From assembly GCA_965229345.1 (NCBI GenBank), contig OZ245872.1, forward strand, positions 3,094,971-3,158,970: DNA of 64,000 nt, written 5' to 3'. Below the pieces are notes generated by a model. That model searched no databases. It was not told where the DNA came from and worked only from the letters and a program-made list of their open reading frames with translations. A program made the position numbers and the translations under genes. Below are positions 7,684-28,083 of the stretch, one piece after another (position 1 is the first letter of the stretch; each line of letters starts with the position of its first letter). Origin of the DNA: Burkholderiaceae bacterium. Lineage in GTDB: Bacteria; Pseudomonadota; Gammaproteobacteria; Burkholderiales; Burkholderiaceae_C.

Positions 7684-7704
7684 TTTGATTATTTAAACGT
7701 AGTT
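7684..7704 (+). repeat. 21-nt AT-rich motif, copy 2 (TTTGATTATTTAAACGTAGTT), 71 nt upstream of the 7775 start
   Basis: 19/21 identical to 7004..7024. Confidence 0.6.
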
Positions 7705-7774
7705 GTACTCTTTTCTGGTTCGGTTTGTTGTTGGTTGGTTCGTTCCATCGATTCACTTCACAAAGGATTCATCC

Positions 7775-9187
7775 ATGTCTGCCCTTGCAACGGTTCCTGG
7801 CTCTGCCGCTTCTCCGGCGTCGCTACCGCGCTTCCGCCCCACCATCGTCACGCTGCCTGTCGATTCGATTCAGCTGGATCCGGGCAACCCTCGTCAGCAC
7901 TCGACCAAGCAGATCGGTCAGATCGCTCGCAGCATTTCTACCTTTGGCTTCAACGTGCCGCTGCTGATCGACCCGTCGTCGAAGTTGATTGCCGGTCATG
8001 GTCGCTTGCTGGCGTGCCGCAAGCTGGGCTGGACCGAGGTGCCGACGATCTGCCTGGACCACCTGAGCGAGGCCCAGGCTCGGGCCTTCATGATCACCGA
8101 CAACAAGCTGACCGAGAACTCGACCTGGGACGACAAGCTGTTGGCCGAGAGCCTGAAGGCCTTGTCGGTGCTGGATCTGGATTTCTCGCTCGAGGTGCTG
8201 GGCTTCGAGATGGGGGAGCTTGATTGCCGGATTCAGGGATTGGACGGTGGCGTCGAGTCGGATGTGGCCGATGTGCTGCCACCGCCCTCCTCTGCTTCGG
8301 TGCCTGCAGTCTCAGTGGTTGGTGATCTGTGGGTGCTGGGATCACACCGCATCCTGTGTGCAGACAGCTTGCTCGCCGCTTCGTATGAAAGGTTGATGGC
8401 AGGTTCGCTGGCCACGATGGTGTTCGAGGACCCGCCGTACAACGTGGCGATCGACGGTCACGTCGGCGGCAAGGGTGCGATCAAGCACCGCGAGTTCGCG
8501 ATGGGCTGCGGCGAGATGAGCTCGGCCGAGTTCACACAGTTCCTGACGGTGGTGTTCGGCCACGCAGCACGCCACAGCACGAATGGATCGATCCACTACC
8601 AGTGCATGGACTGGCGCCATGTCGCCGAGATCACAGCCGCTGGCGCGTCGTCATACAGCGCGCTGAAGAACATCTGTGTGTGGAGCAAGAACGTAGGTGG
8701 CATGGGCTCGCTGTACCGCTCGCGCCACGAGTTGATCTTCGTGTTCAAGAACGGCACGGCGGCGCACATCAACAACGTGGAGCTGGGTCGCCATGGCCGC
8801 TACCGCACCAATGTCTGGGAATACAGCAGCATCGCGTCGACGCGCAAGGCGACCGATGAGGGTGATCTGTTGGCGATGCACCCGACGGTCAAGCCAGTGC
8901 GTCTGGTGGCGGATGCGATCCTGGATGTGTCGAAGCGCGGTGACATCGTGTTGGATGCGTTCCTCGGCAGCGGCAGCACGCTGATCGCGGCGCAGCGTAC
9001 CGGGCGGGTTTGCCACGGGATGGAGATCGATCCGCTGTATGTCGACACCGCCATTCGTCGTTGGCAGGCGGACACCGGGGGTGATGCGATCCTGGCGGCG
9101 ACGGGTGAAACGTTCGCCGAGGTCGAGAACCGCCGCAAGGCGGAAGCCGAAGCCTCCAGCACCGAAGGAGTCGGCCATGGCGTCTGA
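7775..9187 (+). CDS. ParB-like nuclease domain fused to N6/N4 DNA methyltransferase (phage-type)
   Basis: N-terminal ParB-like domain (LDPGNPRQHSTKQIGQIARSI, LIAGHGRL), catalytic DPPYN motif (VFEDPPYNV) and C-terminal AdoMet motif DAFLGSGST. Start taken at the internal ATG 7775 (MSALATVP) of ORF 7703..9187. Confidence 0.85.
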   Translation: MSALATVPGSAASPASLPRFRPTIVTLPVDSIQLDPGNPRQHSTKQIGQIARSISTFGFNVPLLIDPSSKLIAGHGRLLACRKLGWTEVPTICLDHLSEAQARAFMITDNKLTENSTWDDKLLAESLKALSVLDLDFSLEVLGFEMGELDCRIQGLDGGVESDVADVLPPPSSASVPAVSVVGDLWVLGSHRILCADSLLAASYERLMAGSLATMVFEDPPYNVAIDGHVGGKGAIKHREFAMGCGEMSSAEFTQFLTVVFGHAARHSTNGSIHYQCMDWRHVAEITAAGASSYSALKNICVWSKNVGGMGSLYRSRHELIFVFKNGTAAHINNVELGRHGRYRTNVWEYSSIASTRKATDEGDLLAMHPTVKPVRLVADAILDVSKRGDIVLDAFLGSGSTLIAAQRTGRVCHGMEIDPLYVDTAIRRWQADTGGDAILAATGETFAEVENRRKAEAEASSTEGVGHGV

Positions 9188-9647
9188 GATTCCTTTGCCG
9201 AAGGACTCGGCGGCGGTGGGTTCGAGCGCTGGTGTCGGCGCCACCAGCAACAGCAACTACGACGTCGGCTACGCCAAGCCTCCGGTGGCCACGCGTTTTG
9301 CAGCGGGTCACTCAGGCAACCCGCGCGGTCGCCCGAAGGGCTCGCGCAATGTGGCCACCACGTTGTTGCGTGAACTCGGTGCGGTGGTGACCATCCAGGA
9401 AAACGGTCGCCGCCGCAAGATCACGAAGCTGGAGGCGATCATGAAGCAGCAGGTGAACCTGGCGGCTTCGGGTGACCAGCGCTCTGCTCAGTTCATCGTG
9501 GGGCTCGTGCAGACCTCCGAGTCGGCACCGGCGCCCTTGGCCGGGCCGCTGTCGAGCGAGGCCGATGAGCAGGTGAAGAAGGCGCTCGTGCAGCGCATGC
9601 GTGCCTTGGTCAAGCAAAGCGACGGAGGCGGCGATGAGCAGTTTTGA
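9177..9647 (+). CDS. DUF5681-like phage protein (commonly precedes terminase)
   Basis: The motif FAAGHSGNPRGRPKGSRN is typical of DUF5681. The ATG at 9177 overlaps the methylase stop. Confidence 0.55.
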   Translation: MASEIPLPKDSAAVGSSAGVGATSNSNYDVGYAKPPVATRFAAGHSGNPRGRPKGSRNVATTLLRELGAVVTIQENGRRRKITKLEAIMKQQVNLAASGDQRSAQFIVGLVQTSESAPAPLAGPLSSEADEQVKKALVQRMRALVKQSDGGGDEQF

Positions 9648-11091
9648 TGCGCAGACCTTCGCGGCCTTGCTGCGCGGTGATTTCTACGCCTTTGTGCAGC
9701 GCAGCTTTGCGGTGCTGAATCCGGCGATTCCGTTTGCGGAGAACTGGCACCTGGAGTTGCTGGCCGGTTCGCTGGAGCGCTGCCGTACCGGGGCGTGTCG
9801 TCGGCTGATCATCAATGTGCCACCGCGCAGCCTGAAGTCAATCTGTGCGTCGGTGGCGTTTCCGGCATGGGTCCTGGGGCACGACCCGTCGGCGCGGCTC
9901 ATCTGTGCGTCGTATGGGCAGGAGCTGGCGGCCAAGCACGCGCTGGACACGCGCATCGTGATGGAGGATGCGTTTTACAAGGTCACGTTTCCAGGGACGC
10001 GGGTGTCGGCGAGGAAGCAGGCGTTGGCAGACTTTGAGACGACGGCCAAGGGCGGACGGATGGCAACGTCAGTGGGTGGGGTGCTGACAGGCCGGGGTGC
10101 GGATTTTCTGATCATTGACGATCCGCAAAAGCCCAATGAGGTGCTCTCGGAGGTACAGCGCGCCTCCGTCAATGACTGGTATGACCACTCGCTGCTGAGC
10201 CGGCTGAACAACCAATCGACCGGGGTGATCATTGTGATCATGCAGCGGCTGCACCTGGATGACCTTGTGGGCCACGTGCTCGAGCAAGGGGGCTGGGAAG
10301 TGTTGCGCCTGCCGGCGATCGCCGTGGACGACGAGGTGCACCGGATCTGGACGCCATACGGCGAATACACGCATGTGCGGCGTACGGGTGAGGCGCTGCA
10401 TCCGGCACGTGATTCGCTGGAGACGCTGGCTGCCATGCGTGCTTCGATGGGTGAGTACCCGTTCGCCGGCCAGTATCAGCAGGATCCGGTGCCGCAGGGT
10501 GGCGGGCTGGTGAAGGGACACTGGTTCATGACGTACGAGCCGGAGCAGTTGCCGAGCTCGGGGGGCCAGATCATTCAGTCATGGGACACGGCTTCGAAGG
10601 AAAGCGAGTTGTCGAGCTTCAGTGTGTGCACAACCTGGCTGGTGCATGACAAGCGGCATTACCTGCTGCATGTGCTGCGCCGTCGTATGGACTACCCGAC
10701 GTTGAAGCGCGAGGTGGTTCGGCTGGCGAAGGAATTCAAGGCGGCCACGGTGCTGATCGAAGACAAATCTTCTGGGATTCAGTTGATTCAGGAATTGCGC
10801 GGTGAGGGCTTGTACAGCGTGAAGGGGGTCCGGCCGGAAGGTGACAAGACGATGCGCCTGAACGCGCAGACGGCGACGATCGAGAACGGGTTGGTGTTCC
10901 TGCCGCGTCAGGCTCCGTGGTTGCTGGACTATGTGGCGGAGATGACGAGTTTCCCGAGGGCCAAGCACAGTGATCAGGTGGATTCGACGTCGCAGGCGTT
11001 GGCGTGGGTCAAGAGCGCGATGTATGGGCCGGGGATGGGGTTGCTCAACTACTACAAGCAGCAGGCTGAGTTAGCGCAGCGGGGGCGGTAG
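9634..11091 (+). CDS. phage terminase large subunit
   Basis: Starts FAENWHLELLAGSLE...LIINVPPRSLKS (Walker A-like). Also has IIDDPQKP (Walker B) and a C-terminal nuclease region with ATVLIEDKSSG and DQVDSTSQAL. Confidence 0.8.
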   Translation: MSSFDAQTFAALLRGDFYAFVQRSFAVLNPAIPFAENWHLELLAGSLERCRTGACRRLIINVPPRSLKSICASVAFPAWVLGHDPSARLICASYGQELAAKHALDTRIVMEDAFYKVTFPGTRVSARKQALADFETTAKGGRMATSVGGVLTGRGADFLIIDDPQKPNEVLSEVQRASVNDWYDHSLLSRLNNQSTGVIIVIMQRLHLDDLVGHVLEQGGWEVLRLPAIAVDDEVHRIWTPYGEYTHVRRTGEALHPARDSLETLAAMRASMGEYPFAGQYQQDPVPQGGGLVKGHWFMTYEPEQLPSSGGQIIQSWDTASKESELSSFSVCTTWLVHDKRHYLLHVLRRRMDYPTLKREVVRLAKEFKAATVLIEDKSSGIQLIQELRGEGLYSVKGVRPEGDKTMRLNAQTATIENGLVFLPRQAPWLLDYVAEMTSFPRAKHSDQVDSTSQALAWVKSAMYGPGMGLLNYYKQQAELAQRGR

Positions 11092-11275: not shown

Positions 11276-12772
11276 ATGAATCACGACCAAATCAGCCTGT
11301 CTGTCCTCGAATCCCACCTTTGGGAGTCCGCCAACATTCTGCGCGGCCCGGTCGACGCCGCCGACTTCAAGACCTACATCTTTCCGCTGCTTTTTTTCAA
11401 GCGCATCTGCGATGTCTGGGACGACGAGTACCAGGAGATCGTTGACGAAACCGGGGATGAACAACTGGCTTGGTTCCCGGAATCGCACCGCTTCCAGATT
11501 CCCGAAGACTGCCATTGGAACGACGTCCGCAGCAAGGCCAGCAACGTCGGCGCCGCCTTGCAGCGCGCCATGCGCGAGATCGAGAAGGCCAACCCAGAGA
11601 CGCTGTACGGCGTGTTCGGCGATGCACAGTGGTCAAACAAGGACCGGCTCTCGGATGCCCTGCTCAAGGATCTGGTTGAGCATTTTTCTCGGCTGCCGCT
11701 CGGCAACCACAACGTCACTTCCGACCTGCTCGGTAATGCCTACGAGTACCTGATCAAGAAGTTCGCTGACGCCACCAACAAGAAGGCCGGCGAGTTCTAC
11801 ACGCCGCGCAGTGTGGTGCGGTTGATGATCGACATGCTCGCCCCCAAGGAAGCCGAGACGATCTACGACCCCGCGTGCGGCACCGGAGGCATGCTGCTGG
11901 CCGCCGTGCAGCACGTGAAGGAACAGCACGGAGACGTGAAGCGTCTGTGGGGCAAGCTGTACGGCCAGGAAAAGAACCTGACCACCTCGTCGATCGCCCG
12001 CATGAACCTGTTCCTGCACGGCATCGAGGATTTCCAGGTGGTGCGTGGCGACACGCTGCGCAACCCGGCCTTCTTCGACGGCGACCGGCTCGCCACCTTT
12101 GATTGCGTGATCGCCAATCCACCCTTCTCGCTCGAGAAGTGGGGTGAAGAGCTGTGGCTGAGCGACCCCTTCGGCCGCAACTTCGCGGGCCTGCCGCCTT
12201 CGTCGAGCGGCGACTTCGCCTGGGTTCAACACATGGTGAAGTCCATGGCCGACGTGTCAGGCCGTATGGCCGTCGTGCTTCCCCAGGGGGCCCTTTTCCG
12301 AAAAGGCGCTGAAGGAGAAATCCGGCGGAAGCTGCTGGAGATGGACCTGATCGAAGCGGTGATCGGGCTCGCACCTAATCTGTTCTACGGCACAGGGCTC
12401 GCGGCGTGCATCTTGGTCCTGCGCAAGCGCAAGTCTGCTCAGCACAAGAAGAAGGTGCTGATCGCCGATGCATCGCGACTGTTCCGCCGCGGCCGCGCGC
12501 AGAACTATCTGGAGCTTGAACACGCCGCCGACATAGTGGGTTGGTATCGCGGCTTTTGCGATGTGCAGGATGCCGTGCGAGTGGTCAGCCTCGACGAGAT
12601 CAAGGCAGAGGACTGGACGCTGAACATTTCTCGCTACGTGCTGCCACCGCTGCAGGAAGACATTCCACCGCTGCCTGAGGCCATCGCCACATTCAAGGAG
12701 GCGCTGACCCGCTGTCGCGAAGCCGAAGAGCGCCTCGCCCAGATCATGACCGAAGGGGGGTGGCTGCAATGA
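11276..12772 (+). CDS. hsdM: type I restriction-modification methylase subunit HsdM, paralogue 1
   Basis: N-terminal HsdM domain (LWESANILRG), GEFYTPRSVV, AdoMet motif DPACGTGGML and catalytic NPPF (VIANPPFSLEKW). Confidence 0.9.
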   Translation: MNHDQISLSVLESHLWESANILRGPVDAADFKTYIFPLLFFKRICDVWDDEYQEIVDETGDEQLAWFPESHRFQIPEDCHWNDVRSKASNVGAALQRAMREIEKANPETLYGVFGDAQWSNKDRLSDALLKDLVEHFSRLPLGNHNVTSDLLGNAYEYLIKKFADATNKKAGEFYTPRSVVRLMIDMLAPKEAETIYDPACGTGGMLLAAVQHVKEQHGDVKRLWGKLYGQEKNLTTSSIARMNLFLHGIEDFQVVRGDTLRNPAFFDGDRLATFDCVIANPPFSLEKWGEELWLSDPFGRNFAGLPPSSSGDFAWVQHMVKSMADVSGRMAVVLPQGALFRKGAEGEIRRKLLEMDLIEAVIGLAPNLFYGTGLAACILVLRKRKSAQHKKKVLIADASRLFRRGRAQNYLELEHAADIVGWYRGFCDVQDAVRVVSLDEIKAEDWTLNISRYVLPPLQEDIPPLPEAIATFKEALTRCREAEERLAQIMTEGGWLQ

Positions 12773-13236
12773 TGTATGAGGAGGTCATCGCTGACTTTGC
12801 ACAGCGAACTGCAGCGAATCTAAAAGCCATTCGGGCAATGCGAGCCGGGGACTCCAAAGCAGATGTCTACGAGGTAACTCAACTCGTGAACTCGATGCTG
12901 GGCCTGCTGGTGTTCCCTCAGCAGCGGTACATCGATCGGATTCCCAAGACGTCGATAGCTGAGCTTGAACGCGACGGATGGCCCATTCCTTCCGTGATTG
13001 GTGACTATCCACAAGTGGAAGATTTGCGCGACTTGGTACGCATGCTTCGGAACGCTGTGACGCACTGCAACCTTGAGTTCCAGCCGGGTCCGGGCGGCGA
13101 GATTGAGCGTTTGACCGTGTGGAATACAGATCCAAGGAGCCGGAAAGTGACTTGGAAGGCGGAGATGATGGTCGCCGACCTTGATGGGATCACCCAAAAG
13201 TTCATCGAGGTGCTCTTGAACAAAAAGGCGCCGTGA
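12769..13236 (+). CDS. small HEPN-domain protein (Rx4H motif) embedded in the type I R-M operon
   Basis: RNAVTH at 13048..13065 fits the HEPN Rx4-6H motif in an all-helical ~155-aa protein. The ATG at 12769 overlaps the hsdM1 stop (ATGA), and its own stop overlaps the hsdM2 ATG. Visibly lower G+C than both flanking genes. Confidence 0.55.
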   Translation: MMYEEVIADFAQRTAANLKAIRAMRAGDSKADVYEVTQLVNSMLGLLVFPQQRYIDRIPKTSIAELERDGWPIPSVIGDYPQVEDLRDLVRMLRNAVTHCNLEFQPGPGGEIERLTVWNTDPRSRKVTWKAEMMVADLDGITQKFIEVLLNKKAP

Positions 13237-14750
13237 TGAGCCGCATTTCCCAACAACAACTAGAGAGCTATCTGTGGGGCGCCGCCGTGCTGCTGCGCGG
13301 CTTGATCGACGCGGGCGACTACAAGCAGTTCATCTTTCCGCTGCTGTTCTACAAGCGCGTCTCGGATGTCTGGGACGAGGAATATCAGGCGGCGCTGGCC
13401 AACTCAGGCGGCGACCTCTCCTACGCGCAGTTCGCCGAGAACCATCGGTTCCAGATCCCTGAGGGTGCGCACTGGAACGAGGTGCGTCAGACACCGAAGA
13501 ACGTCGGCGCGGCCATCCAGAAGGCCATGCGCGCCATCGAGACCGCCAACCCGGATCTGCTCGACGGCATCTTTGGCGACGCGCCCTGGACCAACCGCGA
13601 GCGCCTGCCCGATGAAACGCTGAAGAACCTGATCGAGCACTTCTCGACCCAGACGCTCTCGGTGGCCAACGTACCCGAGGACGAGCTGGGCAACGCCTAC
13701 GAGTACCTGATCAAGAAGTTTGCGGACGACTCCGGCCACACGGCGGCCGAGTTCTACACCAACCGCACCGTCGTCCACCTGATGACGCAGCTCCTGGCCC
13801 CGCAAGCGGGCGAGTCGATCTACGACCCCACGTGCGGCACCGGCGGCATGCTGATCTCGGCGTTGGACGAAGTGAAGCGCTCGGGCGGTGAGTACCGCAC
13901 GCTGAAGCTCTACGGGCAGGAGCGCAATCTCATCACCTCGTCCATCGCCCGCATGAACTTGTTCCTGCATGGCGTGGAGGACTTCGAGATCATCCGCGGC
14001 GACACGCTGGCCGACCCCAAGCACATCGAGGGCGACCGCCTGCGCGAGTTTGACGTGATCCTGGCCAACCCGCCGTACTCCATCAAGCAGTGGAACCGCG
14101 AGGCCTGGAGCAGCGACAAGTGGGGCCGCAACTCCCTGGGCACGCCGCCACAGGGCCGCGCCGACTATGCGTTCCAGCAGCACATCCTGACCAGCCTCAC
14201 CGCCAAGGGGCGTTGCGCCGTGCTCTGGCCGCATGGCGTGCTGTTCCGCAATGAGGAACAGGCCATGCGCGCCAAGATGGTCGAGCAAGACTGGGTGGAG
14301 GCCGTCATCGGCCTGGGGCCGAACCTTTTCTACAACTCCCCGATGGAGTCGTGCATCGTCATCTGCAATCGCAAGAAGGCCGCTGCACGCAAGAGCAAGG
14401 TGATCTTCATCGACGCGCTGAACGAGGTCACCCGCGAGCGGGCACAGAGCTTCCTCACGCCCGCGCACCAGCAGCGCGTCCTGGCCGCCTACAAGACGTT
14501 TGCCGATGCGCCCGGTTTCGCAAAGGTCGCCACGTTGGCCGAGATCGGCGGCAATGCGGCCAATCTGTCGATCCCGATGTACGTGAAGCGCATCGCGGCT
14601 TCTGTTGCCACCGACAGCAATGGCCATGCAGTATCGCTGCGTTCGGCCTGGGCACAGTGGCAGAACGACGGCCGTGCCTTCTGGCAGCAGATGGACGCGC
14701 TGGTTGAAACGCTGGATGGCGTGATCGCGGAGGACGTCGAGCGTGCCTGA
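13236..14750 (+). CDS. hsdM: type I restriction-modification methylase subunit HsdM, paralogue 2
   Basis: Collinear with paralogue 1, roughly half the residues identical by eye. Has DPTCGTGGML and catalytic NPPY (ILANPPYSIKQW). Carries EFYTNR instead of EFYTPR. Confidence 0.9.
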   Translation: MSRISQQQLESYLWGAAVLLRGLIDAGDYKQFIFPLLFYKRVSDVWDEEYQAALANSGGDLSYAQFAENHRFQIPEGAHWNEVRQTPKNVGAAIQKAMRAIETANPDLLDGIFGDAPWTNRERLPDETLKNLIEHFSTQTLSVANVPEDELGNAYEYLIKKFADDSGHTAAEFYTNRTVVHLMTQLLAPQAGESIYDPTCGTGGMLISALDEVKRSGGEYRTLKLYGQERNLITSSIARMNLFLHGVEDFEIIRGDTLADPKHIEGDRLREFDVILANPPYSIKQWNREAWSSDKWGRNSLGTPPQGRADYAFQQHILTSLTAKGRCAVLWPHGVLFRNEEQAMRAKMVEQDWVEAVIGLGPNLFYNSPMESCIVICNRKKAAARKSKVIFIDALNEVTRERAQSFLTPAHQQRVLAAYKTFADAPGFAKVATLAEIGGNAANLSIPMYVKRIAASVATDSNGHAVSLRSAWAQWQNDGRAFWQQMDALVETLDGVIAEDVERA

Positions 14751-15930
14751 CAAGAAGAACAAGAGCCTGAGGCCCAGCTGGCGCCAGGTGAAGTTTGGCG
14801 ATGTGGTGCGGCAGTGCAAAGAGAGAGCCGATCCGGAGACCTCGGGTCTCGAGCGCTACGTCGCTGGTGACCATATGGACACCGACGATCTACGGCTGCG
14901 CCGGTGGGGTGTCATTGGCTCCGGCTACTTAGGGCCAGCGTTTCACATCCGGTTCAAGCCAGGACAAGTTCTCTACGGCTCGCGACGAACCTATCTGCGC
15001 AAGGTGGCCGTTGCAGCCTTCGAGGGCATCTGTGCCAATACGACTTTCGTGTTGGAGTCGAAATGCACAGGTGAGCTTCTGCCGGAGTTCCTTCCCTTCT
15101 TGATGCAGACCCAGGCATTCAATGCGTTCTCGGTCAAGAATTCGAAGGGCTCGGTCAACCCGTATATCAACTTCTCTGATTTGGAGCAGTTCCAGTTTGC
15201 TCTGCCTTCTGTCGAAGATCAGCGGAAGATTGTCCAAGTTCTAACAGCGGCGGATGCGTGCGCAATAGCGTATGAGGAGGCGAAAGAAGCACACGAGCGG
15301 CTGATCGCATCCTTCATTCAGGAGTCCTTCTTGGACTTTGATGGCCGCTATGAACACAGGCCCTGCAGCGAGCTGATGGAGAAGATCACGGTGGGAATAG
15401 TGGTCAAGCCGGCTGACCTGTATGTCGGTACCGGTCAAGGAGTGCGAACCTTAAGGTCTCTGAACGTATTCCCAGGGCGCTTCGTGCTGGATGAGCTGGT
15501 CGAGATAAGTGTCGAGGGACACGCAGCTCACCAGAAGTCGGCGTTGACCGCTGGAGACATTGTGGTTGTCAGAACTGGGAGGCCGGGCGATGCCGCCGTC
15601 GTTCCGGCTGACCTAGCGGAGACGAACTGCATAGACCTGATTGTTGCGAAGCCTGGCCCGTCCATAACTGCGGACTACGTAGTCACGTTTCTCAACTCTC
15701 AGTTCGGACTCCGGATCTTCAGTTCGGGAACAACTGGAACTGCACAGAAGCATTTCAATGTTGGAGAGTTTTCGAAGCTTAGGCTACCCGTTCCCCCGTT
15801 CGCTATGCAGCAAGAGTTTGGCACTAGACTTTCAGCACTTAAGGAGCCGATCCAATCACTTGAGGGTCGACTCCGAGTTGCACGCGCGACGAAAGCGATT
15901 GCCGTCAATTCAGCAATCTGTGGAGCGTGA
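14743..15930 (+). CDS. hsdS: type I restriction-modification specificity subunit HsdS
   Basis: Two target-recognition-like halves separated by a conserved helical spacer (LPSVEDQRKIVQVL..., LPVPPFAMQQEF...). The GTG start overlaps the hsdM2 stop. Confidence 0.85.
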   Translation: MPDKKNKSLRPSWRQVKFGDVVRQCKERADPETSGLERYVAGDHMDTDDLRLRRWGVIGSGYLGPAFHIRFKPGQVLYGSRRTYLRKVAVAAFEGICANTTFVLESKCTGELLPEFLPFLMQTQAFNAFSVKNSKGSVNPYINFSDLEQFQFALPSVEDQRKIVQVLTAADACAIAYEEAKEAHERLIASFIQESFLDFDGRYEHRPCSELMEKITVGIVVKPADLYVGTGQGVRTLRSLNVFPGRFVLDELVEISVEGHAAHQKSALTAGDIVVVRTGRPGDAAVVPADLAETNCIDLIVAKPGPSITADYVVTFLNSQFGLRIFSSGTTGTAQKHFNVGEFSKLRLPVPPFAMQQEFGTRLSALKEPIQSLEGRLRVARATKAIAVNSAICGA

Positions 15931-18929
15931 TCTCGATGGCCTTCAACGAATCGAACACCGTAGAAGCCTACGTCCGCGATCTGCTCGCAGGACCCATCAA
16001 GACGACACCACTCAACGCGGTACACGAACCCCTGCCCAGCTACGGTCCTAGCCCCAAAGGCATCGGCTGGCGCTATGCAGCCCCCGCCGAGGTGCCGCGC
16101 CAGATCCAGGAAGTGCTGGTCGAGCCCTGGATGCGCGATGCGCTAATCCGCCTGAACCCGGAGATCGCCGCCCAGCCCGACCGCGCCGACGAGGTGCTCT
16201 ACAAGCTGCGCGCCATCGTGTTGTCGGTGCGCTCGGATGGCCTGATCCGCGCCAACGAGGAGATGACCGCCTGGATGCGTGGCGAGCGCTCCTTGCCCTT
16301 CGGCTCGAACAACGAGCATGTGCCGGTTCGGCTGATCGACCTGGACGACCCGAAGCAGAACCAGTACATCGTCACCCAGCAGTTCATTTACCGCGCAGGG
16401 CCCACGGAGCGCCGGGCCGATCTGGTGCTGCTGGTCAACGGTCTTCCGCTGGTCCTGATCGAGGCCAAGACACCGGTCAAGAAGTGCATCAGCTGGGTCG
16501 ACGGTGCGGTGCAGGTACACGACGACTACGAGAAGTTCGTTCCGGAACTCTTCGTCTGCAACGTGTTCTCGGTGGCCACCGAAGGCAAGGCCTACCACTA
16601 CGGGTCGATCGGCCTGCCGGTCAGGGACTGGGGCCCTTGGCACCTGGACGGAGGCGATGCGCAGCACCACCCGCTGAAGTCTCTCAAGCTCTCGGCCGAG
16701 AGCATGCTGCGCCCGCATGTGGTGCTGGACATCCTCGGCAGCTTCACCCTGTTCGCCACGGACAAGAAGAAGCGCCGCATCAAGATCATCTGCCGCTATC
16801 AGCAATACGAGGCGGCGAACAAGATCGTCGAGCGCGTGTTGGCGGGCCACCCGAGGAAGGGGCTGATCTGGCACTTCCAGGGCTCGGGCAAGTCGCTGCT
16901 GATGGTGTTCGCCGCGCAGAAGCTGCGCATGCATGCCGGCCTGAAGAACCCCACCGTGCTGATCGTGGTGGACCGGATCGATCTGGACAGCCAGATCACC
17001 GGCACCTTCACCGGGGCGGACATTCCGAACCTGGAGAAGGCCGACAGCCGAGAGAAGCTGCAGCTGTTGCTGGCGCACGACGTGCGCAAGATCATCATCA
17101 CGACGATCTTCAAGTTCGGCGAGGCCAGCGGGGCGCTGAACACGCGCAGCAACATCATTGCGCTGGTGGACGAGGCCCATCGCACGCAGGAAGGCGACCT
17201 GGGCCGCAAGATGCGCGAGGCCTTGCCGAACGCGTTTCTGTTCGGTCTGACGGGCACGCCGATCAACCGCGCCGACCGCAACACCTTCTACGCATTCGGT
17301 GCCGACGAGGACATCGCCAGCGGCAAGGGCTATATGAGCCGCTATGGCTTCGAGGAGTCGATCCGCGACGGTGCCACGCTGAAGCTGCACTTCGAACCAC
17401 GGCTGATCGACCTGCACATCGACAAGGGCGCGCTGGACGCCGCCTACAAGGACCTGACAGGTGGCCTGTCGGATCTCGATAAGGACACCCTGGCCAAGAC
17501 CGCCGCCAAGATGGCGGTCTTGGTCAAGACGCCCGAACGCGTTCGAAAGGTGTGCGAGGACATCGTCGAACATTTCCAGACCAAGGTGGAACCGAACGGC
17601 TTCAAGGGCCAGATCGTCACGTTCGACCGGGAGTCCTGCCTGCTGTTCAAGGCCGAGCTGGACAAGCTGCTGCCGCCCGAGGCCAGCGATATCGTGATCT
17701 CGGTGCAGGTCGCGGACAAGAAGGAACACCCGGAGTACGCGAAGTACGACCGCAGCCGTGACGACGAAGAGAGGCTACTGGACCGCTTTCGGGATCCGGC
17801 CGATCCGCTGAAGCTGATCATCGTCACGGCCAAGCTGCTGACAGGCTTCGACGCGCCCATCCTGCAGGCGATGTACCTGGACAAGCCGCTGCGGGACCAC
17901 ACGCTGCTGCAGGCCATCTGTCGCGTGAACCGCACCTACTCCGAGCAGAAGACTCACGGTTTGATCGTGGACTACCTCGGCATCTTCGACGATGTAGCGG
18001 CAGCACTGGAGTTCGATGATCAGAGCGTCAAGCAGGTGGTCAGCAACATCCAAGAATTGAAGGACAAGCTGCCTGAAGCCATGCAGAAGTGCCTGGCCTT
18101 CTTTGCCGGCTGTGACCGCACGCTGCAGGGCTACGAGGGGTTGATCGCCGCGCAGCAGTGCCTCCCGAACAACGAAGTGCGAGACAACTTTGCGGCCGAG
18201 TACAGCGTGCTCAACAAGATCTGGGAGGCGCTGTCACCAGACACAGTGCTGGGCCCCTTCGAGAAGGACTACAAGTGGCTGTCGCAGGTGTACCAGTCGG
18301 TGCAGCCGTCCAGCGGCCACGGAAAGCTGGTCTGGCACTCGCTCGGCGCCAAGACGATCGAGCTTATCCACAAGAACGTGCATGTCGATGCTGTTCGGGA
18401 CGATCTGGACACGCTGGTGATGGATGCGGATCTGCTGGAGGCAGTGCTCTCGAACCCCGACCCGAAGAAAGCCAAGGAGATCGAGATCAAGCTCAAGCGC
18501 CGGCTGCGCGGACACGAGGGCAATCCCAAGTTCAAGCAATTGTCAGAACGACTGGATGCGCTGAAGGACCGCTTCGACTCAGGCCAAATCAATAGCGTCG
18601 AATTCCTGAAGCAGCTGCTTCAGATCGCTAAGGAAACACTGCAGGCCGAGAAGGACGAGCCACCGCAAGAGGACGAGGATCGAGGCAAGGCCGCGCTGAC
18701 CGAGCTGTTGAACGAAGTCAAGACCGAGGCGACGCCAATCATGGTCGCGCGCGTGGTCACCGACATCGACGAGATCGTGCGGCTGGTGCGCTTTCCGGGT
18801 TGGCAGGGAACCCAGGCTGGAGAGCGTGAGGTCAAGAAGGCGTTGCGGAAGGCGCTGTTCAAGTACCAGCTGCATGCGGATGAAGAGCTGTTTGAGAAGG
18901 CCTTTAACTACATACGGCAGTACTACTAA
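15927..18929 (+). CDS. hsdR: type I restriction endonuclease subunit HsdR (SF2 helicase/translocase)
   Basis: Nuclease region DLVLLVNGLPLVLIEAK, Walker A FQGSGKSLLM, DEAH box VDEAHRTQ, motif III GLTGTPI and motif VI QAICRVNR. The start overlaps the hsdS stop. Confidence 0.9.
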   Translation: MISMAFNESNTVEAYVRDLLAGPIKTTPLNAVHEPLPSYGPSPKGIGWRYAAPAEVPRQIQEVLVEPWMRDALIRLNPEIAAQPDRADEVLYKLRAIVLSVRSDGLIRANEEMTAWMRGERSLPFGSNNEHVPVRLIDLDDPKQNQYIVTQQFIYRAGPTERRADLVLLVNGLPLVLIEAKTPVKKCISWVDGAVQVHDDYEKFVPELFVCNVFSVATEGKAYHYGSIGLPVRDWGPWHLDGGDAQHHPLKSLKLSAESMLRPHVVLDILGSFTLFATDKKKRRIKIICRYQQYEAANKIVERVLAGHPRKGLIWHFQGSGKSLLMVFAAQKLRMHAGLKNPTVLIVVDRIDLDSQITGTFTGADIPNLEKADSREKLQLLLAHDVRKIIITTIFKFGEASGALNTRSNIIALVDEAHRTQEGDLGRKMREALPNAFLFGLTGTPINRADRNTFYAFGADEDIASGKGYMSRYGFEESIRDGATLKLHFEPRLIDLHIDKGALDAAYKDLTGGLSDLDKDTLAKTAAKMAVLVKTPERVRKVCEDIVEHFQTKVEPNGFKGQIVTFDRESCLLFKAELDKLLPPEASDIVISVQVADKKEHPEYAKYDRSRDDEERLLDRFRDPADPLKLIIVTAKLLTGFDAPILQAMYLDKPLRDHTLLQAICRVNRTYSEQKTHGLIVDYLGIFDDVAAALEFDDQSVKQVVSNIQELKDKLPEAMQKCLAFFAGCDRTLQGYEGLIAAQQCLPNNEVRDNFAAEYSVLNKIWEALSPDTVLGPFEKDYKWLSQVYQSVQPSSGHGKLVWHSLGAKTIELIHKNVHVDAVRDDLDTLVMDADLLEAVLSNPDPKKAKEIEIKLKRRLRGHEGNPKFKQLSERLDALKDRFDSGQINSVEFLKQLLQIAKETLQAEKDEPPQEDEDRGKAALTELLNEVKTEATPIMVARVVTDIDEIVRLVRFPGWQGTQAGEREVKKALRKALFKYQLHADEELFEKAFNYIRQYY

Positions 18930-18946: not shown

Positions 18947-20518
18947 ATGCAGTTCACTTTTCGAGTTCTCCAAGTTAGAGAGCGGCTTCGCCCGAAGCTG
19001 CCTGGGCAGGTCTTCCTTTGTTCAGGTGATTGGGATGACTATTCTTTCAAGACCTCATTTGACGTCGTGCTGATCAATGCAGAGGGGAAAGAAGTAGATC
19101 TTGGTACTGTCAAGATTGGGTATGAAGGACAGCCTAATGGATGGACGCGCGAGAAATTGCCAGAGTTGTTCGAATCGCTCCCAGCTGAGTTTTTTTCACT
19201 CGGCCAAGACGTCGAGTATTACAAGAGCGCGTATGACGCCCTTGACACCGAAACTCGCGACTCAGTCCTGGGGGCATTACGCGATGTCGTATATGACGCG
19301 GCCATTCTCGCTGCCGTGGCCGACGAAAAGGTGTTCAAGCTATCTCTGACTCGAGGTGTAAGCCTTTCGACAGTGCGAGATCAGTTCAAACGGGTTCTGG
19401 GTGGTCAACCAGAGCTAACGGATTTCGACTTTCTTTATAGCCAAGAGCCAGGGAAAAAGAGCGCCCCAGTGGAGCTCAGTTTTCGTGTCACCGCCGGATC
19501 GTCGCCATCGACCAACGTGCACGTTCTCATCGGAAGAAATGGCGTCGGGAAGACAACTCTCCTCAACAACATGATCCGTACGTTGATGGGTCACGCAAAT
19601 GAATCTGGAGAACCTCATCGAGCCTTTCTCGGCGAGGAGGTTCTCCTGGACAGGCCCCTGCTATCTCATACTTACTTTAGCAGCGTTATATCCGTTTCAT
19701 TCAGCGCGTTTGACCCGTTCATTCCCCCCGAGGATCGCATGGATCGAACCAGTGGCCCGGCGTTTTACTACATCGGAATGAAGAAGAATCGCGCCAACAT
19801 TGTTGACGGATTAATCGCGCCACCTAAGACGAGTGACGACCTGGTAAGCGACTTCGTTGCCAGCTTCAAATCATGTTTAAGCCAACCTGCGAAACGAGAC
19901 CGGTGGATTCGAGCGATCCGACGACTTGAGTCCGACCTTAACTTTGCGGACATGAATTTGGCGGGGCTACTTGAACTTGAGGACCATGAGTCAGTTCACC
20001 AGGCGGCGAAACTAGCCTCGCGAATGAGCTCAGGTCATTCTATTGTTCTTCTCACAATAACAAAGCTCGTCGATACCGTTGAGGAGAAGGCTTTAGTGCT
20101 TATGGACGAGCCTGAGAGTCATCTCCACCCACCGCTATTATCCGCATTTACCCGCGCGCTTTCGGAGCTTCTACATGACCGAAACGGAGTCGCCGTCGTC
20201 GCAACCCATTCTCCGGTGGTACTTCAGGAAGTACCAAAATCTTGTGTTTGGAAGCTGACTCGAATTGGATCTCAAGGTAGATCCGACCGGCCGGAAAGAG
20301 AAACTTTTGGAGAAAACGTTGGCGTTCTTACACGCGAGGTATTTGGGTTGGAGGTATCCAAGTCAGGCTTCCACGAATTGCTTGAGCGATCAGTCGATCA
20401 GGGGGCGACGTTTGACCAAGTCATGCAAAGCTATGGCGGTCAACTCGGCACGGAAGCTCAGGCAATCTTGATTACTCTCATCGCCGCACGAGATTTATCA
20501 ATCAAGTCGCAGCAATGA
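18947..20518 (+). CDS. ABC/AAA_21-type ATPase, Septu PtuA-like, with ~195-aa N-terminal extension
   Basis: Walker A GRNGVGKTT at residues 196-204, signature-like MSSGHS, Walker B LVLMDEPESHLHP and H-loop VATHSP. Starts 17 nt after the hsdR stop. Visibly low G+C. Confidence 0.7.
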   Translation: MQFTFRVLQVRERLRPKLPGQVFLCSGDWDDYSFKTSFDVVLINAEGKEVDLGTVKIGYEGQPNGWTREKLPELFESLPAEFFSLGQDVEYYKSAYDALDTETRDSVLGALRDVVYDAAILAAVADEKVFKLSLTRGVSLSTVRDQFKRVLGGQPELTDFDFLYSQEPGKKSAPVELSFRVTAGSSPSTNVHVLIGRNGVGKTTLLNNMIRTLMGHANESGEPHRAFLGEEVLLDRPLLSHTYFSSVISVSFSAFDPFIPPEDRMDRTSGPAFYYIGMKKNRANIVDGLIAPPKTSDDLVSDFVASFKSCLSQPAKRDRWIRAIRRLESDLNFADMNLAGLLELEDHESVHQAAKLASRMSSGHSIVLLTITKLVDTVEEKALVLMDEPESHLHPPLLSAFTRALSELLHDRNGVAVVATHSPVVLQEVPKSCVWKLTRIGSQGRSDRPERETFGENVGVLTREVFGLEVSKSGFHELLERSVDQGATFDQVMQSYGGQLGTEAQAILITLIAARDLSIKSQQ

Positions 20519-21378
20519 AGAGGCTTAAAGTTCCGGCCTTCGACGACTCGGAGATTTACTTTGCCTGTGCTGCCGCTATACCGGGGGTTCAAGCAGCTGC
20601 GGCCTACACGGCAGCCTCAAGTGCAATGATGTTGCAATCCATCGAGTATCGCGTCCGAGCAGCCAGCAATGCTCTCCATACTTTTCAAGCAAGCGACAGT
20701 GGTAATGACCAGCAAGTTGTCGCAGGGGGTCTTACGAAAGGCGACCTCAAGAAGCTGTACGACCGGGGGATGCTGAAGGGTGCAGACGGGCGCACCTATT
20801 ACGATAAATTGCTCGCGTCTGCGCCGTTGGGGAAGTGTCCGTATTGCCAGTTTGGACATGCAGAGACGCTGGATCACTTCCTATCTAAGGCTCGATATCC
20901 GTCATTTGCAGTGCTACCAAGCAATCTGATTCCTTCGTGTATGCGATGCAACAAGGGCAAGGGGGGTGGGGTCGTTACCCCTGAGATGGAGATGTCGCAT
21001 CCGTACTTCGAGCTTACGCACATCGAGCAGGACGTCTGGCTTTCTGCAGAAGTCGCAGAGACGAGCCCCGTTACGGCAACGTATGCGATCACGACGCCTT
21101 CGCATTGGCCGATAGATCTTGCTCGTAGAGTCAAAAATTACTTTGACGAGTTCGACCTATCAGTCCGGTATGCCGTCGAGGCTGCGAGTGAATTGGTTTC
21201 GGTCTCCGCTTATCTGGGTGCGTTACCCTCCGCCGACGTGCGCCTTGATCATCTCCAACGGGTCGCCACAGAGGAGCGTGGTCTGTACAAGAACGGCTGG
21301 AAGACAGCGCTGTATGCGGCGCTGTCGACATCGAACTGGTACTGCGAGATTGGTTACGCTGGCGTTGGGGTGACTTAG
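20515..21378 (+). CDS. HNH endonuclease, Septu PtuB-like (TIGR02646-like)
   Basis: CPYCQFGHAETLDHFLSKARYPSFAVLPSNLIPSCMRCNKGKG is a CxxC...H...N...CxxC HNH fold. The ATG overlaps the ATPase stop (ATGA at 20515-20518). Confidence 0.7.
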   Translation: MKRLKVPAFDDSEIYFACAAAIPGVQAAAAYTAASSAMMLQSIEYRVRAASNALHTFQASDSGNDQQVVAGGLTKGDLKKLYDRGMLKGADGRTYYDKLLASAPLGKCPYCQFGHAETLDHFLSKARYPSFAVLPSNLIPSCMRCNKGKGGGVVTPEMEMSHPYFELTHIEQDVWLSAEVAETSPVTATYAITTPSHWPIDLARRVKNYFDEFDLSVRYAVEAASELVSVSAYLGALPSADVRLDHLQRVATEERGLYKNGWKTALYAALSTSNWYCEIGYAGVGVT

Positions 21379-21577: not shown

Positions 21578-22135
21578 CTATGGTCCCAAAAGATCCTTGA
21601 GCAGAGCTATGTCTTCCTTGGGCACGCCCATCCGCGAGTGCTTGAGAGCTGAGATAACGAGGTCTCGAATACTCTGAACGGCCCAGGCCTGTCGATATCC
21701 ACTGGTCAGCATGAGCTGCAGAGTACTGGCGACGGATACGGTCGCCCCGCCTTCGCTGGCTCTACGACGAGCCTTGCGCTCGTCGAGGATGATGCTGGAG
21801 CCACGACCGGAGATTGCGAGTGCTGCGCTCTCGCCGTCATCCAGCCGTGTTCCGAGCGGCCCTGATACGAAGTTCAGGTAAGCGTCGTACTCGATCTCTG
21901 TCATGCGAACTTCTTCCAGTGTGCCGCTCGCGAACAGCCTGCACAGCGCATCGTTGTGGTCGAAGCCGGGAATAGGGTGCCGTCGAACTTCCTTTAGGGT
22001 TCGCTGCTCAATTAAGCACCGCTCTCCAAGGCCTTCAAGGACCAGCACTGGCTTGCCGCTTCCAAGTAGGTTGATAAGTACGCTGGCGTCAAGAACGACT
22101 AGGCCCCTCGGCAGGTAATCATTCGGCAAGGTCAA
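21578..22135 (-). CDS. PIN-like nuclease (COG2405/DUF3368-like), last gene of the QueC-like operon
   Basis: VVLDASVLINLL is the first acidic PIN motif, and GESAALAISGRGSSIILDERKARRRA resembles the GEaxaIxLA...DDxxAR motif of COG2405 PIN proteins. The tracked ORF extends to 22186. A TTG at 22135 preceded by GGGGAGG is the more likely start. Overlaps the upstream gene end. Confidence 0.55.
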   Translation of the reverse strand: MTLPNDYLPRGLVVLDASVLINLLGSGKPVLVLEGLGERCLIEQRTLKEVRRHPIPGFDHNDALCRLFASGTLEEVRMTEIEYDAYLNFVSGPLGTRLDDGESAALAISGRGSSIILDERKARRRASEGGATVSVASTLQLMLTSGYRQAWAVQSIRDLVISALKHSRMGVPKEDIALLKDLLGP

Positions 22136-23282
22136 GCACCACCTCCCCTGAGTGGCCGTCGCGCTCCTGAAACGCGCGCCGAACATCCAGCAGGTTCAGC
22201 TCGAGCATCGACGCAATCTGCTGCTCAGAGAGAAGTTCTCGGTCGTACGCAACGCCAGCGAAGAGAAGTGAGCGCGACGTGAACGGCCGATTCTCTTCAG
22301 GCACGCTCATCTCCTCGGCTACATGGCGGCGATGCTTTAGGCCGACGCCTTGTTTTCGTAAGGAGTCGTAGGTGCCCAGAGGCAGCATATCCAAAGACTC
22401 GAGGCGACGAGTCATCGCCTCGATGGAGATATTGAAGAACAACGCCATCATCAGCAATTGCCTAACTGAAAACTGGTCAAACAGCTCCTTGAGTTCCTTG
22501 GCCTTTCGGCGCACCGCAGTCGCCGGGGCAAGGAATGCGAGGCCAAACAGGTCACAGAACCGCTCAGTTCGGCTCTGAGGAGTCTCACCGTCAAAATGAA
22601 CAACCAGACTGGCCTGCCGAGTCAGTGCATGACCGACCTCGTGAGCTCCCGTGACGCGTCGCCTGTACGGTGGGTGCAGCGAATTCAACAGCACAAAGCC
22701 ACCGACCTTTTCATCGAAGGCGACAGCACCTGATATCTTGGATGGCAGCGGGCGCTCGAAGACTCGCAAGCCCATCTCAAACTCCATTAATGAAGCGAGG
22801 TCCTGGATAGGCCCCAGGCCGAGGCCCAGGCGCGAGCGCAACTGAAGTGCAGCATCTTCAGCCTGCCGGTCTAACGAGCCTGATTTCGACACCACGACCG
22901 CTGGGAGGTCGACATGTGGCGGCGCATGCCCAAGTAGCGCTTCCAGTTGAAGCGCTGAGCTGCCGAGCCGGTTGAGCATGTTCGCCACCAATACTTCGTC
23001 GGCGGCTTGCAAGGCCGACGCAGAACTCCGGAACTGCACCTCGAGTTCCAGAGATACAAGGTCGTCATTGACCAATTCGCTTTCGGGAACGTCGTAGAGC
23101 TCCGCGAACTGGCGCAGTTCCTGGCTAGAGACAGCACGCTTGCCAGCCTCAATGGCGACAAGCGTCGTCCGGGCAATGCCCAGCTTTGAAGCGGCAACCT
23201 CTTGGGTAATACGGTGAATCGTACGGGCATGCCGGAGCTTTGCCCCGAGCGCCTCTGCTCGGGTGTTGGCGTCGGTTGCCAT
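22119..23282 (-). CDS. XRE-family HTH fused to ImmA/IrrE (M78, COG2856) zinc metallopeptidase
   Basis: N-terminal HTH LRHARTIHRITQEVAASKLGIARTTLVAIEAGKR and a HExxH motif in VTGAHEVGHAL. Start taken at the ATG at 23282 (MATDANTRAE), 1 nt after the upstream stop. Confidence 0.8.
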   Translation of the reverse strand: MATDANTRAEALGAKLRHARTIHRITQEVAASKLGIARTTLVAIEAGKRAVSSQELRQFAELYDVPESELVNDDLVSLELEVQFRSSASALQAADEVLVANMLNRLGSSALQLEALLGHAPPHVDLPAVVVSKSGSLDRQAEDAALQLRSRLGLGLGPIQDLASLMEFEMGLRVFERPLPSKISGAVAFDEKVGGFVLLNSLHPPYRRRVTGAHEVGHALTRQASLVVHFDGETPQSRTERFCDLFGLAFLAPATAVRRKAKELKELFDQFSVRQLLMMALFFNISIEAMTRRLESLDMLPLGTYDSLRKQGVGLKHRRHVAEEMSVPEENRPFTSRSLLFAGVAYDRELLSEQQIASMLELNLLDVRRAFQERDGHSGEVVLDLAE

Positions 23283-23283
23283 C

Positions 23284-24678
23284 TCAGTTCCCTGCGAAGT
23301 CGGCCACCCAGGACTTCCGTCCGCAGGACTCCACAAACACATCCCATTCTTTCCGATGCTGGATTAGAAATGCTTCCATCTTGTCTCTCACGTTTTTGAT
23401 TGGTTCGTTGAGGCCGCGCGTGAGGGCAGCGACTTCTGCCTGCACACGCACGGCATGAGGTTGAGTTGCAAGGTCGGCTAGCCGCTGCATTGACCGAATG
23501 CTGTTGAGCGCGAGATCCCGGTTCGCGTTAACTGCGTGCGGTACGCCCGCAGGGAACGACTTTTCAAAGGTCGTTTCGCGGAGGTTTTGCGCTCGATATT
23601 CGGTTGAGTCGGCCACGCCGGCCCATTGCAGCGACACGCGTCTGAGGATGCAGTTCCCGCAGAGGCCGCAGTGCATCGACTTCCTGCCGCTGCTCGAGTG
23701 TCTCGCGTCGTACGAGCAGGATCGGTGGGTGGCGAGCCAGTGCGCGACGTTGGTCTCCCGCTTCGCCAAGCTAGCCAGCACCTGCCCCTTCGTAAGGAAG
23801 AGAGCGGGGTGGTCAAACTTGACTTCGGACTTCGTCAGCAGACGAATCAGATTCGCCAGACGTGACGTGAAGCCAGGATGGCAGCTGCGGTGTGGCGCCT
23901 CGGCGCCGAGCCGAACCAGCGAGCCACCGAGGCTGCCTTGGCCGTTCTCGGGAATCACGACACGCGCCGGTTGCGCGATGGCGGCAGCGTATCCCGCGAG
24001 CAGGTCATACAGGAAAGGCCGAGAGCGGAAGGTCAACTCAGCTCGATGGGGCTCGGTCGCATATGCCGCTACCTCAACCGTGTAGAACTCGAGCTGCTTG
24101 TTTCGGGCAAGGTTGCTCCACTCCTTTGGTTTGTCCTTGGCCCGCACGTTGACCAGTACCAATTCGGGTGGCGCTGATTCCGCTCGAAGTTCTTTGGCAA
24201 TGGCGAAGGAATCGAGGCCGTTGCTGAATGGCATGAACACCCTGAGCTGCTGAGGCGGCTCGACTAGATGGTCCTGGCGAGGCTCGCCTTTCCGGGGCTT
24301 TCGGTAGGTGAAAGCGAAGGACCAGCGGTCTGCCGTCAGGAAGCCCAGCGTTTCCGCGAGCGCGCGAGTCACCTCAGGGGAGCGCCAAAGCTTGAGGTCG
24401 CTCACTGGCGCGCTGATGGCGAGGTCGCGTGACCATCCCTTCGTGTAGTGCCGGACCGCGGAGCGGTCGGCCGTCCGCACGGCGCTGATGACTGACGTAA
24501 GATCCTGAAATACTTCCTCCTGGCTGTTGAAGCAGTAGCGCTGAAGATGGCTCGCGTCGATGCGAGTCGCGTCTCTCAGTGGTGCCGAAGCCTGGCCCTT
24601 CTGATTGCCTCGCCTCCGATGCGGGAGAGGACGAGCGGACTCTTCGGCATCGCTAGGAGTGGTTTGCAGCATCGTCAT
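23284..24678 (-). CDS. QueC-like PP-loop ATPase family protein with N- and C-terminal extensions (QatC/Cap9-like?)
   Basis: Degenerate PP-loop FMPFSNGLDS (residues 149-157) and a Cys cluster C321...C337GLC340GNC343ILRR resembling the QueC zinc site (CGxCxxCxxR). 464 aa. The ATG overlaps the upstream gene stop (ATGA at 24675-24678). Confidence 0.6.
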   Translation of the reverse strand: MTMLQTTPSDAEESARPLPHRRRGNQKGQASAPLRDATRIDASHLQRYCFNSQEEVFQDLTSVISAVRTADRSAVRHYTKGWSRDLAISAPVSDLKLWRSPEVTRALAETLGFLTADRWSFAFTYRKPRKGEPRQDHLVEPPQQLRVFMPFSNGLDSFAIAKELRAESAPPELVLVNVRAKDKPKEWSNLARNKQLEFYTVEVAAYATEPHRAELTFRSRPFLYDLLAGYAAAIAQPARVVIPENGQGSLGGSLVRLGAEAPHRSCHPGFTSRLANLIRLLTKSEVKFDHPALFLTKGQVLASLAKRETNVAHWLATHRSCSYDARHSSSGRKSMHCGLCGNCILRRVSLQWAGVADSTEYRAQNLRETTFEKSFPAGVPHAVNANRDLALNSIRSMQRLADLATQPHAVRVQAEVAALTRGLNEPIKNVRDKMEAFLIQHRKEWDVFVESCGRKSWVADFAGN

Positions 24679-25229
24679 ACCCCCTGCAAGTTCAGTTCGG
24701 TATTTAGGCTCTGCTCGACGGTCGGTTTGCGCATTCGGACCTTAGGCACAGGTGGATGTCGGAACTCGCACTTGGGCAAGGCCGCAAGTAAAGCGGCCCG
24801 GAGTCGCCGAACCTGGGTGTCGTGGTGACGGCGGGCGACCCACGCAACCGCACCTTCGATGCCGTCTTCGGCGCTAGCCTCAATTGCTGCTTTGACGACT
24901 CGGCCCCGCGTGTCACCGGCTGGCCGACCACTCCAAATCTCGGCGAAGGCGATGTCAAGGGCCCGACGCGCATCTTGGGACGGGCACCAAGCCTCGAGCG
25001 CCGACAACCTTTGTTCCATCTGCCCGGTTCCGAAGAGTTCGACTTGCTGAGTTGCTAGAACCTGCAGAAACTCCCTGCCCCAGGCTCCCTTCATCCAATC
25101 TGCCCTTTCCCAAGCGGCCCGGCTAAGAGTGTCAACAAGGTCACCGCCCAAGCTAGGCGCGCACGCAACCTGGACCACTTTCCGCCAGGGATTCGTCTGA
25201 GGAACCGAATGATGAAGGTCGTCGCGCAC
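24675..25229 (-). CDS. hypothetical protein, first gene of the QueC-like operon
   Basis: The tracked ORF reaches 25301, but its first 24 codons translate the operator/promoter region. A GTG at 25229 sits 7 nt after AGGAGGAG. No recognisable domain. Confidence 0.5.
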   Translation of the reverse strand: MRDDLHHSVPQTNPWRKVVQVACAPSLGGDLVDTLSRAAWERADWMKGAWGREFLQVLATQQVELFGTGQMEQRLSALEAWCPSQDARRALDIAFAEIWSGRPAGDTRGRVVKAAIEASAEDGIEGAVAWVARRHHDTQVRRLRAALLAALPKCEFRHPPVPKVRMRKPTVEQSLNTELNLQGV

Positions 25230-25243
25230 GGAACCGCTCCTCC

Positions 25244-25288
25244 TGACAATGTCAAGAGTAAGTGTATTTAAAAATTTGACAATGTCAA
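25244..25288 (-). promoter_or_regulatory. promoter with two copies of the palindromic operator TTGACA-N-TGTCAA
   Basis: Minus strand reads TTGACATTGTCAAATTTTTAAATACACTTACTCTTGACATTGTCAGGAGGAGCGGTTCCGTG. The -35 TTGACA lies inside the distal palindrome, followed by a 16-nt spacer and a -10-like TACACT. The proximal palindrome abuts the RBS. Palindrome centres are 33 bp apart. Confidence 0.55.

Positions 25289-26392: not shown

Positions 26393-28083
<1,691 letters not shown>

Follow-up and report, generated by a model that had tools for sequence, protein, structure and literature searches.

A type I restriction-modification operon with two hsdM genes

We analysed a 64,000-nt stretch of DNA from a Burkholderiaceae bacterium (GenBank assembly GCA_965229345.1, contig OZ245872.1, positions 3,094,971 to 3,158,970, forward strand; hereafter the window), which carries a type I restriction-modification (R-M) operon with two hsdM genes. 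The genes were taken from a six-frame list of open reading frames (ORFs), and the junction sequences were read base by base. The ORFs and Pfam searches gave five co-directional genes in the order hsdM1 - HEPN - hsdM2 - hsdS - hsdR. The hsdM1 gene (11276..12772, + strand) encodes a 498-aa M1-type modification subunit, an adenine methyltransferase (MTase) predicted to form N6-methyladenine (m6A), and hsdM2 (13236..14750, +) encodes a 504-aa M2-type subunit, a cytosine MTase predicted to form N4-methylcytosine (m4C); both have the Pfam domains HsdM_N and N6_Mtase. Between them lies a gene for a 155-aa HEPN protein of the pEK499_p136 family (PF18736; 12769..13236, +), an accessory cassette at the M1/M2 junction. 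The hsdS gene (14743..15930, +) encodes a 395-aa specificity subunit with two target-recognition domains (TRDs; Pfam Methylase_S; PADLOC Specificity_I, 278 bits), and hsdR (15936..18929, +) encodes the 997-aa restriction and translocase subunit, read from the ATG at 15936 (Pfam HSDR_N, SWI2_SNF2 and T1R_D3; TIGR00348, 505 bits). NCBIfam assignments of the operon proteins agreed with Pfam. An earlier note on this DNA, made from the sequence alone, had placed these five genes here and had described both HsdM copies as full length, and the ORF list bears it out on both points.

The operon is tightly packed, with overlaps at three of its four junctions: ATGA at 12769-12772 between hsdM1 and the HEPN gene, TGATG at 13234-13238 between the HEPN gene and hsdM2, and a GTG start of hsdS at 14743 that overlaps the end of hsdM2 by 8 nt. 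An identical GTG start and 8-nt M2/S overlap were found in the homologous locus L087. The earlier note had every junction overlapping, which holds for these three and fails at hsdS/hsdR. There the start of hsdR is most likely the ATG at 15936, after a 5-nt spacer behind the hsdS stop, because all HsdR homologues share the N-terminus M-x-F-(N/T)-E-S-N-T-V-E and this ATG gives MAFNESNTVEAY, which is kept in homologues, because the 997-aa product is the form in the public record, and because a GGAG lies 11 nt upstream. The alternative GTG at 15927, which would give 1000 aa, is less likely. From this packing we infer translational coupling of the operon genes.

The two HsdM proteins match the two different modification subunits of PacII

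M1 and M2 were 52% identical over 452 residues, in line with the earlier estimate of roughly half, and the motifs that had been read in them are in place. M1 has DPACGTGGML, NPPF at residues 281-284, EFYTPR and a GTGLA loop, while M2 has DPTCGTGGML, NPPY at residues 278-281, EFYTNR and an NSPME loop. The top match of M1 in the PDB was the M1 subunit of PacII (7vru_A, 586 bits, against 458 bits for PacII M2, chain B), and that of M2 was PacII M2 (7vru_B, 607 bits, against 466 bits for PacII M1, chain A). Over the aligned regions, M1 and M2 were 56% and 59% identical to their PacII counterparts. The next HsdM protein in the PDB after the PacII subunits was 3lkd, from a single-M system, with only 201-225 bits, and by these match scores M1 and M2 resemble each other more than they resemble single-M HsdM proteins.

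The crystal structure of the PacII M1M2S-DNA complex (PDB 7vru/7vs4) was reported by Zhu et al. (2022, Nat Commun 13:6391, PMC9613975), and we aligned the PacII residues named there to M1 and M2 of the window, keeping PacII numbering. All 12 PacII M1 residues are kept in M1 (D25, E170, F171, R252, N276-P-P-F279, S280, R336, T367 and R401), and 23 of the 25 PacII M2 residues are kept in M2. Among these 23 are R11, R29, D33, D36, K38, R130, K167, K168, H175 and the AAEF motif with F180, as well as N285-P-P-Y288, S289, K291, R346, F373, S376 and R410. R29, F180 in AAEF and F373, which belong to the M2-specific pocket or serve communication, are all present together with the NSPME loop, which has been proposed to shrink the pocket for cytosine (PMC5100572); M1 has a G-T-x-x-x loop instead. 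Both NPPY and EFYTNR were found in all 120 of the best listed matches of M2. An overlooked inactivating change in one hsdM copy, which the earlier note had named as a possible flaw in its own argument, did not turn up, both genes being full length with all catalytic residues.

A type I subgroup with two similar but distinct MTase genes, whose products form a heterodimeric M1M2S methyltransferase, was described by Morgan et al. (2016, NAR 44:9413, PMC5100572). The upstream M1 (NPPF) forms m6A within one of the half-sites, and the downstream M2 (NPPY), next to S, forms m4C in the other; M1 and M2 are 45-55% identical, and extra ORFs lie between them in six of the 10 characterised systems (PMC5100572). 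The same work listed more than 300 putative m4C/m6A systems in REBASE in 2016 and demonstrated classic restriction and modification in E. coli. In the ten published systems some 7 bp separate the two modified bases, which lie on opposite strands. M1M2S homologues also restrict phage lambda-vir (PMC5100572, PMC9613975), and in PacII M2 is recruited by M1 once M1 has bound S (PMC9613975).

The top PDB match of HsdS was S.PacII (7vru_C, 132 bits). TRD1 of HsdS shares 40% identity with that of PacII and keeps the base-contacting residues R75 and R76. TRD2 is unrelated to that of PacII. Since the TRDs of HsdS are unlike those of PacII, the recognition sequence should be new. In this subgroup the N-terminal TRD1 is expected to be of a conserved cytosine-half-site type (CCC, GCC or TCY), and TRD1 of HsdS is a candidate for it. 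A prediction of the m4C half-site from TRD1 was rejected, since the base read by H94 of PacII is not stated by Zhu et al.

Because the best matches are to PacII M1, M2 and S, the named residues are kept, the 52% identity falls inside the published 45-55%, and the gene order is M1 (NPPF), an optional insert, M2 (NPPY), S and R, we consider it very likely that the locus is a PacII-like member of the m4C/m6A two-MTase subgroup of type I R-M systems. It shares with PacII the NSPME and GT-x-x-x loops. It differs from PacII in its TRDs and in the HEPN gene between M1 and M2. With canonical type I enzymes such as EcoKI and EcoR124I (M2S1/R2M2S1) it has in common the HsdM_N and N6_Mtase fold, an S subunit with two TRDs, a SWI2/SNF2 HsdR, and C-terminal helices of M that assemble with the S coiled coil. 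In those enzymes a single HsdM species supplies both protomers of the homodimer; here two paralogous, non-identical M genes each bear the signatures of their own clade, and m4C in place of m6A is expected on one strand. The statement in the earlier note that type I enzymes are built from one HsdM species is thus correct for canonical systems but not as a general rule, given the M1M2S systems (PMC5100572). The first of its three explanations, a heteromeric M1/M2 methylase, matches the family established in these two studies (PMC5100572, PMC9613975) and so describes biology that was already known. The heterotrimer, its order of assembly and its m4C/m6A chemistry at this locus are what we infer by analogy. 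If the locus belongs to this subgroup, its two hsdM genes would therefore be two specialised subunits, both required, from an old duplication.

The gene order and the two M clades recur across phyla

The arrangement is not confined to this strain; the earlier note had named uniqueness, with clear recombination scars, as a result that would refute it. Used as a query, M2 had thousands of close relatives at identities of up to 95%, among them proteins from Stutzerimonas, Stenotrophomonas maltophilia, Pigmentiphaga and Methylocaldum. In the three contexts of M2 relatives that were examined, an M1-type gene lies immediately upstream and there is no HEPN gene. With any insert allowed for, the order M1-M2-S-R recurs in Stenotrophomonas maltophilia and Pigmentiphaga, in Geomonas, Limnobacter and Keguizhuia, in an Omnitrophota genome and in several metagenome contigs.

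Starting from homologues of the HEPN protein and their contigs, we found M1-HEPN-M2-S-R in six further loci, which makes seven with the window and includes named genomes from two phyla. The six come from Geomonas anaerohicana, Limnobacter olei, Keguizhuia sedimenti and three unrelated metagenome contigs (L002, L003, L025, L090, L093 and a JGI contig). A metagenome-assembled genome (MAG) of Omnitrophota has the order M1-M2-S-R-HEPN. Among PLSDB plasmids, tblastn with the HEPN protein and megablast with the operon gave nothing useful; scanning metagenomes with the HEPN protein alone, under patterns that were overly specific, gave one short contig only; and an exact look-up of the HEPN protein of the window on contigs gave no record.

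In every related locus the upstream M best matched M1 of the window and the downstream M best matched M2. The scores against M1 and M2 of the window were 839 and 472 bits for the upstream M of Geomonas and 478 and 806 bits for its downstream M; in the Omnitrophota MAG they were 633 and 495 bits upstream, and 492 and 665 bits downstream. Signatures were compared in 10 loci with both M genes, with the NLFY-anchored loop read in 17 of the 20 subunits. In all 10 the upstream M1 is marked by motif IV NPPF, motif I DPACGTG, EFYTPR and the loop GT-x-L-A (GTGLA in seven loci, GTSLA in one), and the downstream M2 by motif IV NPPY, motif I DPTCG(T/S)G, EFYTNR and the loop NSPME. These comparisons indicate that the M1/M2 pair goes back to an old duplication, is conserved as two orthologous clades and is no strain-specific accident.

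Some related loci have peculiarities of their own. In Stenotrophomonas maltophilia (L083-L085, 9626-13203) an OLD-family ATPase/TOPRIM nuclease gene and a UvrD helicase gene, a Gabija-like pair, stand between M2 and S. M2 of Pigmentiphaga (L086, 8001-10145) is 714 aa long, and its C-terminal extension, about 210 aa, may resemble the extra TRD reported for M2.PcaI (PMC5100572). In Limnobacter olei (L003, 6363-7442) the M2-type gene is an open segment of only 359 aa, and the tblastn match ends at about 7400 though the contig continues; this may be a disrupted gene or an assembly error. The genes 3' of hsdR also differ among the related loci, being SIR2 with HerA, McrBC or an SMC-like ATPase.

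A HEPN gene at the M1/M2 junction

The protein encoded between M1 and M2 matched pEK499_p136 (PF18736) with 78.1 bits (E=7.9e-22, cut-off 26.6) over profile positions 3-148 of 152. Its HEPN motif, R-x4-H, reads R94-N-A-V-T-H99; R94 and H99 were invariant in 28 aligned homologues, and R-x4-H was present in all 120 listed HEPN homologues. A confident AlphaFold model (predicted local distance difference test, pLDDT, 87.7; predicted template modelling score, pTM, 0.80) places a sheet of three strands after the R-x4-H helix and before the final helix.

In loci that have no HEPN gene, the 3' end of M1 (…GGGGGATGGCTGAAATG) runs straight into M2; where the gene is present, almost the same 3' end of M1 runs into it. 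This pattern makes the HEPN gene look like a cassette placed exactly at the coupling junction, between the M1 stop and the M2 start. Many loci with more distant pEK499_p136 relatives had no detectable type I genes nearby, so that the HEPN family as a whole is not specific to two-MTase systems. Anantharaman et al. (2013, PMC3710099) had already noted members of this gene's family in certain R-M operons, and we found no publication describing HEPN paired with an M1-M2 type I system. The cassette is the only element of the locus that is even mildly new.

A precedent for a HEPN nuclease in a type I operon is PrrC, the anticodon nuclease of the EcoprrI type Ic hsd operon, which has an N-terminal ABC/Rad50-like NTPase and a C-terminal HEPN domain (PMC3710099). 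The window resembles EcoprrI in that its type I operon encloses a HEPN-family gene whose R-x4-H is intact. The protein itself differs from PrrC, as its 155 aa comprise the HEPN domain only, of a different HEPN family (pEK499_p136); as it has no ABC-ATPase domain, we rejected it as a PrrC homologue. By analogy, a plausible role would be that of a co-expressed latent RNase, acting as an abortive-infection toxin or back-up layer or as a PrrC-like guard. A more specific proposal is that M1-HEPN-M2-S-R is a conserved sub-architecture in which HEPN is a PrrC-like guard, a latent RNase kept inactive by the asymmetric M1M2S(R) complex and freed when that complex is disabled by a phage anti-restriction protein such as Ocr or ArdA, both of which inhibit PacII (PMC9613975). 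We regard this as conceivable though rather doubtful.

Alternative explanations for the second hsdM gene

Several results weigh against the assignment set out above or its parts. One of the three base-contacting residues of TRD1 is changed, H94 to T, in a domain that is only 40% identical to PacII TRD1, and TRD1 might in principle present no cytosine. A scan for promoters and terminators around the operon found no signal above chance. For the HEPN protein, a Foldseek search with the model gave nothing at E<=0.001 in the PDB or BFVD, so the assignment to HEPN, as a candidate, is drawn from the profile and the motif only. The residues and loops kept in M2 suggest, even so, that the system very probably methylates a cytosine-containing half-site.

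The H94 change also bears on the nearest competing reading, a heteromeric methylase in which both subunits form m6A and M2 is a second adenine methylase or a non-catalytic structural partner. NPPY is common to many m6A methylases, and databases annotate both M proteins as adenine-specific type I M subunits. M2, however, has the full cytosine-pocket set of PacII M2 (F180, N285, P286, P287, Y288 and F373) with the NSPME loop, besides its 59% identity to that subunit across the aligned region, and the NPPY subunit was given the m4C role in 10 characterised systems (PMC5100572). We therefore hold this reading to be improbable. Less probable again is a second methylase with a separate role, be it regulation, an anti-restriction decoy or service to a distant hsdS, as the earlier note had also suggested. 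Nothing specific was found in its favour, and what is known of M2-type subunits speaks against it. M2 with S is inactive when M1 is missing, while M1 with S is partially active (PMC5100572), and in four tested systems and in PacII biochemistry M2-type subunits without M1 neither bind S nor methylate (PMC5100572, PMC9613975). M2 moreover always adjoins its cognate S and is sometimes fused with it (PMC5100572), and the PADLOC entry PDLC03038 covers M2 and S. The third option in that note was that two type I loci had fused recently and had not yet decayed. Such a fusion or juxtaposition, leaving one hsdM surplus and decaying or about to decay, would suit a mobile, defence-rich island, where rearrangements are frequent. 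The evidence contradicts it, and we give it the least credence of all: M1 and M2 are orthologous to the upstream and downstream M across phyla, in every related locus, and the ORF list holds no remnant of a second S or R. The earlier judgement that the locus is not a decaying remnant stands, with both genes full length and the catalytic residues and clade-specific motifs intact.

Genomic surroundings

The operon sits on a defence-rich mobile island. Downstream of hsdR, and starting 17 nt after its stop, is a Septu-like pair whose genes overlap by ATGA: a PtuA-type AAA ATPase gene (18947-20518, +; PADLOC PtuA 613 bits, PDC-M01A 667 bits) and a gene for a 287-aa PtuB partner (20515-21378, +) with a CxxC...H...CxxC HNH-like signature (PDC-M01B, 271 bits). 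The GC content is about 0.52 at this pair and about 0.62 in the hsd operon. On the opposite strand follow a gene for a 202-aa partner (21578-22186, -; weak PDC-S70 match), which overlaps an RmrA-like gene for a helix-turn-helix and Peptidase_M78 (ImmA/IrrE) protein (22119-23342, -; PADLOC RmrA match), a QatC-like gene (23284-24678, -; 140 bits) and, next to it, an unannotated ORF of 208 aa (24675-25301, -).

Upstream of hsdM1 are genes for a fusion of a ParB-N domain with an N6_N4 DNA methyltransferase (7703-9187, +), a DUF5681 protein (9039-9647, +) and a terminase large subunit (9601-11091, +; phrog_38, 361 bits), after which there is no other phage structural gene. These three genes seem to belong to a mobile island of phage-derived or satellite-like type, not to a full prophage. 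On the other side, DUF3489 (25536-25991), DUF2924 (25931-26392) and a large serine recombinase (26356-28083) that adjoins a tRNA-Ser(GCT) gene (28326-28418, -), with the core genes for aspartokinase and TilS beyond it, probably mark the right end of the R-M island. A DUF3489/DUF2924/recombinase set also accompanies the M1-HEPN-M2 system of the metagenome locus L090. No att-type repeat of the tRNA-Ser/recombinase end of at least 14 nt was found within the window.

Proposed mode of action and implications

With the locus taken as a PacII-like m4C/m6A system, we propose the following model. M1 (NPPF) would dock first, through its C-terminal helix, on the coiled coil of HsdS with its two TRDs, and would form m6A at an adenine in the half-site read by TRD2. 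M2 (NPPY) would then be recruited beside TRD1 and form m4C at a cytosine in the other half-site. A closed, asymmetric M1M2S clamp would flip the cytosine into M2 and the adenine towards M1, and binding of HsdR would lead to restriction of DNA that carries neither mark. The HEPN gene would be accessory cargo co-expressed with the operon, most likely encoding a latent RNase that serves as an abortive-infection or back-up layer.

Type I systems with two methylases have been characterised before through genetics, methylome sequencing and crystallography, and the locus carries little weight as a discovery. For annotation, its M genes are better labelled M1 (m6A) and M2 (m4C) than as duplicate adenine methylases, and M1-M2 pairs with the NPPF/NPPY, EFYTPR/EFYTNR and GT-x-x-x/NSPME signatures are no anomaly for sequence scans to flag. 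The methylome of the host is expected to hold a bipartite m4C/m6A motif of new specificity. Of all the features of the locus, only the HEPN cassette might be worth an experiment: recurring at the same junction, and together with the variable defence cargo, it could be a small case of R-M systems that bear a second-line toxin.

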